From assembly GCF_003334315.1 (NCBI RefSeq), contig NZ_QOWR01000063.1: a stretch of DNA of 27,334 nt. One strand, given 5' to 3'. The stretch's first letter is position 1, and every line of letters starts with the position of its first letter. Shown here piece by piece: positions 22,601 to 25,600 of this stretch. The DNA is from Escherichia coli (lineage in GTDB: Bacteria > Pseudomonadota > Gammaproteobacteria > Enterobacterales > Enterobacteriaceae). The position numbers are program-made.

Positions 22601-25600
22601 TATCTCAATGTCACATTATAAAACAGGTCATAAACAACCACGATTTCGTTATTCAGTTCTGGCCCGCTGCGTGGCGTGGGCAAATATCTCTGTTCAGGTT
22701 CTTTTTCCACTCGCTGTCACCTTTACCCCAGTAATGGCGGCACGTGCGCAGCATGCGGTTCAGCCACGGTTGAGCATGGGAAATACTACGGTAACTGCTG
22801 ATAATAACGTGGAGAAAAATGTCGCGTCGTTTGCCGCAAATGCCGGGACATTTTTAAGCAGTCAGCCAGATAGCGATGCGACACGTAACTTTATTACCGG
22901 AATGGCCACAGCTAAAGCTAACCAGGAAATACAGGAGTGGCTCGGGAAATATGGTACTGCGCGCGTCAAACTGAATGTCGATAAAGATTTCTCGCTGAAG
23001 GATTCTTCGCTGGAAATGCTTTATCCGATTTATGATACGCCGACAAATATGTTGTTCACTCAGGGGGCAATACATCGTACAGACGATCGTACTCAGTCAA
23101 ATATTGGTTTTGGCTGGCGTCATTTTTCAGGAAATGACTGGATGGCGGGGGTGAATACTTTTATCGATCATGATTTATCCCGTAGTCATACCCGCATTGG
23201 TGTTGGTGCGGAATACTGGCGCGATTATCTGAAACTGAGCGCCAATGGTTATATTCGGGCTTCTGGCTGGAAAAAATCGCCGGATATTGAGGATTATCAG
23301 GAACGCCCGGCGAATGGCTGGGATATTCGTGCTGAGGGCTATTTACCCGCCTGGCCGCAGCTTGGCGCAAGCCTGATGTATGAACAGTATTATGGCGATG
23401 AAGTCGGGCTGTTTGGTAAAGATAAGCGCCAGAAAGACCCGCATGCTATTTCTGCCGAGGTGACCTATACGCCAGTGCCTCTTCTGACACTGAGCGCCGG
23501 GCATAAGCAGGGCAAGAGTGGTGAGAATGACACTCGCTTTGGCCTGGAAGTTAATTATCGGATTGGCGAACCTCTGGCGAAACAACTCGATACAGACAGC
23601 ATTCGCGAGCGTCGGGTACTGGCAGGCAGCCGCTATGACCTGGTTGAGCGTAATAACAACATCGTTCTTGAGTACCGCAAATCTGAAGTGATCCGTATTG
23701 CTCTGCCTGAACGTATTGAAGGTAAGGGTGGTCAGACACTTTCCCTGGGGCTTGTGGTCAGCAAAGCAACTCACGGACTGAAAAATGTGCAGTGGGAAGC
23801 GCCGTCATTACTGGCTGAGGGTGGCAAAATTACCGGTCAGGGTAGTCAGTGGCAAGTAACGCTCCCGGCTTATCGTCCAGGCAAAGACAATTATTATGCG
23901 ATTTCTGCGGTTGCCTACGATAACAAAGGCAATGCCTCAAAACGCGTGCAGACAGAGGTGGTCATTACCGGAGCAGGTATGAGCGCCGATCGCACGGCGT
24001 TAACGCTTGACGGTCAGAGCCGTATTCAAATGCTTGCTAACGGTAATGAGCAAAGACCGCTGGTGCTGTCTCTGCGCGACGCCGAGGGGCAGCCAGTCAC
24101 GGGCATGAAAGATCAGATCAAGACTGAACTAGCCTTCAAACCGGCTGGAAATATTGTGACTCGTTCCCTGAAGGCCACTAAATCACAGGCAAAGCCAACA
24201 CTGGGTGAGTTCACCGAAACTGAAGCAGGGGTGTATCAGTCTGTCTTTACTACCGGAACGCAGTCAGGTGAGGCAACGATTACTGTTAGCGTTGATGGCA
24301 TGAGCAAAACCGTCACTGCAGAACTGCGGGCCACGATGATGGATGTGGCAAACTCCACCCTGAGCGCTAACGAGCCGTCAGGTGATGTGGTTGCTGATGG
24401 TCAGCAAGCCTATACGTTGACGTTGACTGCGGTGGACTCCGAGGGTAATCCGGTGACGGGAGAAGCCAGCCGCTTGCGATTTGTTCCGCAAGACACTAAT
24501 GGTGTAACCGTTGGTGCCATTTCGGAAATAAAACCAGGCGTTTACAGCGCCACGGTTTCTTCGACCCGTGCCGGAAACGTTGTTGTGCGTGCTTTCAGCG
24601 AGCAGTATCAGCTGGGCACATTACAACAAACGCTGAAGTTTGTTGCCGGTCCGCTTGATGCAGCACATTCGTCCATCACCCTGAATCCTGATAAACCGGT
24701 GGTTGGCGGTACAGTTACGGCAATCTGGACGGCAAAAGATGCCTATGACAACCCTGTGACCAGCCTCACGCCGGAAGCGCCGTCATTAGCGGGTGCCGCT
24801 GCTGTAGGTTCTACGGCATCTGGCTGGACAAATAATGGTGATGGGACGTGGACTGCGCAGATTACTCTCGGCTCTACGGCGGGTGAATTAGAAGTTATGC
24901 CGAAGCTAAATGGACAGGATGCGGCAGCAAATGCGGCAAAAGTAACCGTGGTGGCTGATGCGTTATCTTCAAACCAGTCGAAAGTCTCTGTCGCAGAAGA
25001 TCACGTAAAAGCCGGCGAAAGCACAACCGTGACGCTTATTGCAAAAGATGCACATGGCAACACTATCAGTGGTCTTTCGTTGTCGGCAAGTTTGACGGGG
25101 ACCGCCTCTGAAGGGGCGACCGTTTCCAGTTGGACCGAAAAAGGTGACTGTTCCTATGTTGCTACGTTAACTACAGGCGGAAAGACGGGCGAGCTTCGTG
25201 TCATGCCGCTCTTCAACGGCCAGCCAGCAGCCACCGAAGCCGCGCAGTTGACGGTCATCGCCGGAGAGATGTCATCAGCGAACTCTACGCTTGTTGCGGA
25301 CAATAAGGCTCCGACCGTCAAAATGACGACGGAACTCACCTTCACCGTGAAGGATGCGTACGGGAACCCGGTCACCGGGCTGAAGCCAGATGCACCAGTG
25401 TTTAGCGGTGCCGCCAGCACGGGGAGTGAGCGTCCTTCAGCAGGAAACTGGACAGAGAAAGGTAATGGGGTCTACGTGGCGACCTTAACGCTGGGATCTG
25501 CCGCGGGTCAGTTGTCTGTGATGCCGCGAGTGAACGGCCAAAATGCCGTTGCTCAGCCACTGGTGCTGAACGTTGCAGGTGACGCATCTAAGGCTGAGAT

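Follow-up and report, generated by a model that had tools for sequence, protein, structure and literature searches.

Three tandem Ig-like modules in the passenger of the Escherichia coli adhesin FdeC: known domains, fixed in number, that probably form a section of the stalk

The window analysed here is a 27,334-nucleotide (nt) stretch of Escherichia coli DNA (contig NZ_QOWR01000063.1 of assembly GCF_003334315.1). It carries fdeC (eaeH) as a plus-strand, frame 1 open reading frame (ORF) at positions 22608..26864, which the ORF list and translation give as 1418 codons, or 1418 amino acids (aa). An initial annotation of the window had pointed to three tandem repeats of ~100 aa inside the adhesin passenger, at positions 24640-25580, which correspond to residues 678-991. 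The repeats are real, and we conclude that they are very probably three paralogous immunoglobulin (Ig)-like domains of the Invasin_D3/Big_1 type, the fourth to sixth of the FdeC passenger, which descend from an old triplication, are now fixed in number and would form a stiff section of the stalk. They are also already known: these three domains of FdeC were structurally solved in 2012, and the finding is an ordinary one.

The identity of the protein and the type of its domains come directly from the data. RefSeq E. coli genes annotated 'inverse autotransporter adhesin FdeC' show 100% nt identity, both to the 941-nt region and to the entire gene. An inverse-autotransporter (IAT) beta-barrel (PF11924) lies at the N-terminus and a passenger of tandem Big_1/Invasin_D3 Ig-like domains at the C-terminus, as expected of the family. 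The sequence identifies the ORF as the type Ve inverse autotransporter FdeC/EaeH of E. coli, an adhesin of the intimin/invasin family. Pfam was searched with a sub-query that started at aa 401 and covered aa 401-1418, and each of the three plus-strand modules, ~103 aa in length, gave a significant Invasin_D3 match. Module 1, or D3 (aa 684-787; 24657..24968), matched over aa 684-783 (i-E 8.6e-11); module 2, or D4 (aa 788-889; 24969..25274), over aa 788-885 (i-E 1.2e-10); and module 3, or D5 (aa 890-992; 25275..25583), over aa 891-986 (i-E 9.9e-12). The modules are also resolved in PDB 4E9L, and Pfam Big_1 is weak or absent on all three. Domain annotation, which had been proposed as the check, therefore confirms that fdeC contains Big/invasin-type domains.

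The three modules resemble one another far more than they resemble their neighbours. Pairwise aa identities are 41%, 46% and 39-42%. Module pairs have alignment scores of 162-228 (z 22-29 against shuffles, which score ~20 +/- 7), and modules aligned to the remaining Ig-like domains of FdeC score at most 90. A hidden Markov model (HMM) built from the modules scored ~160 bits on each of them and at most 13 on all other domains (10-13 on D1 and D2); scoring its own training modules is partly circular, and the clean separation also appears in other proteins. By these comparisons, modules 1-3 are a subfamily of their own, distinct from the D1/D2 subtype, within an array of ~10 Ig-like domains. They thus make up only part of the repeats in the passenger, three of ~10. 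It could be asked whether the modules are alike by chance or through the composition of a protein rich in Ala, Gly and Thr. Biased composition is all that speaks for such an artefact; the shuffle z-scores, the independent Pfam matches and the solved 4E9L structure with its three Ig folds refute it and leave it a negligible probability.

That structure belongs to what is essentially the same protein. PDB 4E9L ('attaching and effacing protein, pathogenesis factor') matches aa 595-1008 with an E-value of 7e-248, and we count 18 differences between the window protein and the 414 residues of the 4E9L chain, among them G848C in module 2. Nesta et al. (mBio 2012) defined FdeC orthologues by >90% aa identity to the reference FdeC; the window protein reaches ~96% over 414 aa against the IHE3034-derived 4E9L chain, a figure that covers the crystallised fragment only. 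In their crystal, only residues 678-991 are visible, and these are three Ig-like domains (PMC3324786). The structure of this part of the protein, region B, is elongated, 126 Angstrom long, and superposes on D2-D4 of invasin (PMC3324786). An Ig-like beta-sandwich fold can thus be assigned from a published, near-identical structure and its description. Since the span under study coincides exactly with the residues of the published crystal structure, there is nothing new here, and the repeats carry little weight as a discovery: they are textbook Ig-like domains, and the E. coli adhesin that contains them, a vaccine candidate, is already characterised and structurally solved.

The modules are recognised by a conserved motif, W-T-x-x-G ... 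G-x-L-x-V-M-P-x-x-N-G-Q. In the fuller form given by the initial annotation, it was matched exactly by a regular expression in module 1 (nt 24825-24917) and module 3 (nt 25449-25541), but not in module 2, where nt 25131-25223 encode the degenerate version WTEKGDCSYVATLTTGGKTGELRVMPLFNGQ. Its five departures are C for G; T, G and K for L, S and A in TLGS(T/A)AG; and L for K/R. The reported spacing of ~306 bp likewise holds for the first WT-to-WT gap (306 nt) but not for the second (318 nt). One of the departures, the TGT codon at window positions 25149-25151, places a Cys at aa 848 of module 2, where the crystallised FdeC has Gly. Cys848 is the sole cysteine of the mature protein, the other cysteine, Cys21, lying in the N-terminal leader. 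Among 120 cluster representatives, residue 848 is Cys in 30 and Gly in 73.

The role of this motif bears on what the modules do. At E<=1e-3, a profile of the modules picks up 1679 representative proteins, and many of these are giant adhesins in which such domains occur by the tens. Because the same profile finds proteins that include unrelated giant adhesins, the motif is most simply read, from sequence, as the fold-determining core of the subtype and not as a ligand site. The competing view is that the modules are the specific collagen- or host-cell-binding part of FdeC and that the motif is a binding surface, so that they would be more than a passive stalk. Published work lends this view some support. 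The fragment FdeC-AB, which contains the modules, attaches to epithelial cells and to collagens I, III, V and VI; region B bears the antigenic properties of FdeC and is a protective antigen fragment (PMC3324786). The modules are, moreover, a distinct and conserved subtype. However, the published binding was mapped to fragment AB and not to region B alone (PMC3324786), a motif common to all three modules and to unrelated giant adhesins fits fold-determining residues, and natural alleles that have lost modules 1 and 2 persist. On balance we judge a dedicated ligand-binding function unlikely.

Our preferred reading, in which the three modules are a stiff part of the stalk, can be set out as a sequence of steps, in which we infer how the passenger is secreted, that the modules serve as a spacer and that the motif is structural. 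The modules very probably arose by an old internal triplication, old because their silent sites are saturated (third codon positions are 26-29% identical), and are now retained as three distinct, fixed domains that form the elongated ~126-Angstrom rod of 4E9L. As in the rest of the family, the beta-barrel would sit in the outer membrane and provide the route by which the passenger is exported as a hairpin, with its C-terminus ending up outside (PMC7718877); FdeC itself is reported to be displayed on the cell surface (PMC3324786). Intimin has a rod-like passenger whose export is driven by sequential folding (PMC7718877), and by analogy the sequential folding of Ig-like domains may drive export here. 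Once outside, the three modules would hold the distal Big_1 domains at a distance from the cell surface. Exposed epitopes probably lie on the modules too, given that region B is the fragment that acts as protective antigen. Three points weigh against this reading. Fragment AB was the one used to measure binding to collagen and cells, and the modules may therefore have a direct ligand-binding role; the function ascribed to the three domains apart from the rest of the passenger is drawn by analogy; and natural alleles that lack two or more modules exist, so that having all three may not be strictly necessary.

Copy number proved almost invariant. We surveyed 5426 complete E. coli genomes, of which 4629 carry the region, 4615 of these at a coverage of at least 80%. 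Spans were taken from 60-row samples of matches: in all full-coverage rows of the region sample, which was spread over 91-100% identity, the region spans 940-941 nt, and in those of the gene sample the whole of fdeC spans 4230-4257 nt, a difference of a few codons. One sampled row departs from this pattern, with a 4111-nt fdeC match at 97% query coverage. Modules were also counted in the best 120 protein representatives, clustered at 90% identity, and exactly three were found in 113 of them, including the representatives of clusters with 17,949, 3,112 and 3,064 members. Within E. coli fdeC the number of modules is effectively fixed at three, in >99% of genomes. Compared across alleles, the region is near-invariant in repeat number but varies in sequence by up to ~9%, which is half of the complete uniformity that the initial annotation had named as evidence against length variation.

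The DNA of the modules offers little for recombination to act on. Aligned in codon register, they are 46-51% identical at the nt level, and the longest exact words common to module pairs measure 8-11 nt. Tandem Repeats Finder, run on the gene with a minimum score of 30, reported nothing, and a repeat search returned solely stretches of 24-37 nt with 67-83% identity, located at the KDAxGN and GxLxVMPxxNGQ motifs. The initial annotation was therefore correct to describe the repeats as diverged in DNA and their recombination potential as modest. RecA-dependent recombination needs ~20-30 nt or more of exact identity. Homologous recombination between the modules is implausible because of their 46-51% nt identity, their saturated third positions and a longest common word of 11 nt.

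The same figures decide against a different account of the region, in which recombination between the modules makes the stalk differ in length from strain to strain, as in a contingency-type repeat array. Such an array would consist of near-identical DNA repeats, which these are not, and would be polymorphic in repeat number between strains, which is seen here only in rare deletion alleles. What favours the account are in-frame alleles of 1112 aa (21 contigs) and 1091 aa (a 10-member cluster), together with a five-module paralogue and a related protein with ~10 tandem 103-aa modules, all of which are described below. Yet nearly all genomes carry the region with a constant span, 113 of 120 representatives have three modules, an exact identity of at most 11 nt is well under what RecA requires, the sequenced deletion junction offers ~2 nt of unambiguous microhomology and is absent from the complete genomes, and other deletions among the Ig domains break the reading frame. 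For E. coli the account is largely refuted, and we consider it very improbable. The suggestion that the repeats allow stalk-length variation between strains survives only marginally, through the rare in-frame deletion alleles. Fixed number and DNA too diverged for repeat-mediated recombination together mean that FdeC stalk length is not a variable trait in practice, and the useful outcome of this work is the negative one: over thousands of E. coli genomes, the number of modules is essentially fixed at three.

Rare exceptions exist. The 1112-aa allele (P0118-P0120; L009 6001-9339) lies at the canonical fdeC locus in 21 contigs, with flanks 99.9% identical to the window at the nt level. It differs by one clean, in-register and in-frame deletion of 918 nt that runs from residue 40 of D2 to residue 30 of D5. 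Both ends fall inside a GNPVTG motif, and the product is a hybrid D2/D5 domain in a protein without modules 1 and 2. The GNPVTG-coding site in D2 (24444..24461, plus strand) is the left breakpoint of this deletion and also of a 340-nt deletion described below, and that in module 3 (25362..25379, plus strand) is the right breakpoint of the 918-nt deletion. Read at the DNA level, just 2 nt ('AA') are unambiguously common to the two sides of the junction. As a contiguous stretch, the junction occurs in 0 of the 5426 complete E. coli genomes; the sole match to it with at least 80% coverage, VTB96816v, was rejected as an example of the 1112-aa allele, as it carries a different, frame-breaking deletion of 340 nt. 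An assembly artefact is unlikely for the 1112-aa allele, since the 21 contigs come from different samples.

A second in-frame allele, of 1091 aa (P0144, E. coli, a cluster of 10), fuses D00 to D3. It has lost D1 and D2 and kept D4 and D5, and its membrane-proximal D00 continues into the C-terminal portion of module 1. Several putative singleton variants also carry deletions between D00 and D3, for which an assembly artefact is possible. In sequence, the junctions of these exceptions look like illegitimate microhomology deletions and not like repeat-driven homologous recombination. It is conceivable, though in our estimate rather unlikely, that the D2/D5 and D00/D3 alleles are expressed and functional short-stalk variants of FdeC with altered reach or binding and partial escape from FdeC-based vaccine immunity, and that the recurrent (G/D)NPVT(G/S) breakpoints mark a weak, register-preserving deletion hotspot. 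Such effects on reach, binding and vaccine immunity could follow from the position of the deleted part within region B, the protective fragment. The existence of a few in-frame alleles that lose part of region B is of minor interest for vaccine coverage.

Disrupted copies of the gene were seen as well. In three complete E. coli genomes, fdeC is a pseudogene with frame-breaking deletions between Ig-domain segments, for which sequencing or assembly error is possible. The deletions measure 665 nt and 340 nt in two of them, and the third has a double deletion (L002 4516-4539; L012 3579-3582; L004 4001-4131). The 665-nt deletion has a 24-nt overlap and extends from D6 to D8, and the 340-nt deletion runs from the GNPVTG motif of D2 to the DNPVTS motif of D3. 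At the fdeC locus of strain HS-02 (L003 3063-4637), the 5' 1.57 kb is normal and the gene is annotated as a frameshifted pseudogene; after this 5' part, ~1.5 kb matches the window gene solely in short pieces of 81-88% identity.

Larger differences in module number, to five or ~10, are confined to paralogues or other genera. An FdeC-like protein of 1630 aa (P0099 cluster; L005 6001-10893, also L006-L008), whose named cluster members are mostly E. marmotae, E. ruysiae and unclassified Escherichia, contains five modules. It shares the architecture of FdeC with 67% identity overall, and its counterparts of D3, D4 and D5 are 82%, 84% and 69% identical, but two extra modules stand between D4 and D5. 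Its locus differs too: the gene is flanked by a sulfatase/radical-SAM pair on one side and by an AraC/GyrI-type regulator with hipBA on the other, for which reason it was rejected as an fdeC allele. None of the 5426 complete E. coli genomes carries this paralogue, its two extra modules having no match there, and the size of 1630 aa matches none of those given by Goh 2019 for the six inverse autotransporters of SMS-3-5. Further afield, a 1589-aa protein of Enterobacteriaceae bacterium LUAb1 (P0122) has ~10 tandem modules at aa 558-1589, with an exact period of 103 aa and near-equal profile scores. This regularity of sequence suggests that, in this other lineage, the module was recently amplified in tandem.

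FdeC can be placed among several characterised relatives. The closest comparison is with the 4E9L crystal of region B itself, which is the same protein over the same residues. Invasin of Yersinia pseudotuberculosis (D1-D4, 1CWV) and intimin of enteropathogenic E. coli (D0-D2, 1F00) likewise have rod passengers of tandem Big/Invasin_D3 domains. Unlike them, FdeC has ~10 Ig-like domains, and neither a C-type lectin cap nor a LysM domain was detected in it. A C-type lectin tip is present in intimin, invasin, YeeJ, IatC and IatD and is no requirement for family membership; no such tip domain was found among the Pfam matches in aa 401-1418, which accords with Goh 2019, where the cap is given for YeeJ, IatC and IatD only. 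YrIlm/YrInv of Yersinia ruckeri (5LDY) is another inverse autotransporter with tandem Big domains, and 5LDY matches aa 530-666 of the window protein (E 3e-10). Its repeats are almost identical (cited in PMC6714894), which makes copy-number change and misassembly a concern there; in FdeC, by contrast, the modules are strongly diverged in DNA and their number is fixed.

The remainder of the 1418-aa protein follows the same family plan, and all its features lie on the plus strand. The beta-barrel occupies aa 76-350 (22833..23657; Pfam IAT_beta PF11924, E 1.8e-109), and the invasin and intimin barrels in the PDB, 4E1T and 4E1S, match aa 113-357 (E 5e-82 and 6e-71). A membrane-proximal, D00-like Ig-like domain follows at aa 358-473 (23679..24026), where PDB 6TQD (intimin D00-D0) matches aa 358-474 with an E-value of 1.1e-11. 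Next come two Ig-like domains, D1 (aa 474-578) and D2 (aa 579-683), at 24027..24656, with Invasin_D3 matches at aa 474-573 (E 2.5e-9) and aa 579-680 (E 3.8e-11), respectively. Beyond the three modules, the distal Ig-like domains D6-D9 (25584..26792) comprise three Big_1 domains, at aa 1000-1089, 1105-1192 and 1201-1290 (E 3.6e-21, 4.4e-16 and 3.9e-15), and one weak Invasin_D3-like domain at aa 1313-1387 (E 1.3e-3); the invasin structure 1CWV aligns by sequence to aa 1008-1140. Nine Invasin_D3/Big_1 matches over aa 474-1387 and the D00-like domain together account for the ~10 Ig-like domains of the passenger. In NCBIfam, no model scored above its cut-off, IatC, Ilp, YrIlm, intimin and SinH all falling under their curated thresholds, and the sub-threshold matches mostly reflect the common barrel.

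The surroundings of the gene agree with its identity. Positions 4012-26881 of the window are collinear with E. coli strain FORC 064 at 99.3% identity, and over this stretch the FORC 064 annotation gives the ecp operon, ykgL/O/M/R and then fdeC. The comparison with this strain yields the conserved order of the fdeC locus, namely ecp operon, ykgL/O/M/R, fdeC, AraC-type regulator and rclCBA. An insertion sequence of the IS1A type occupies window positions 26882-27334; it starts 17 nt past the fdeC stop codon and stands where FORC 064 has the gene for the AraC-type regulator. At the other end, positions 1-4011 hold prophage-like genes (major capsid protein, baseplate protein) that are ~94% identical to those of other E. 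coli prophages, adjoin a tyrosine integrase and lack collinearity with FORC 064.
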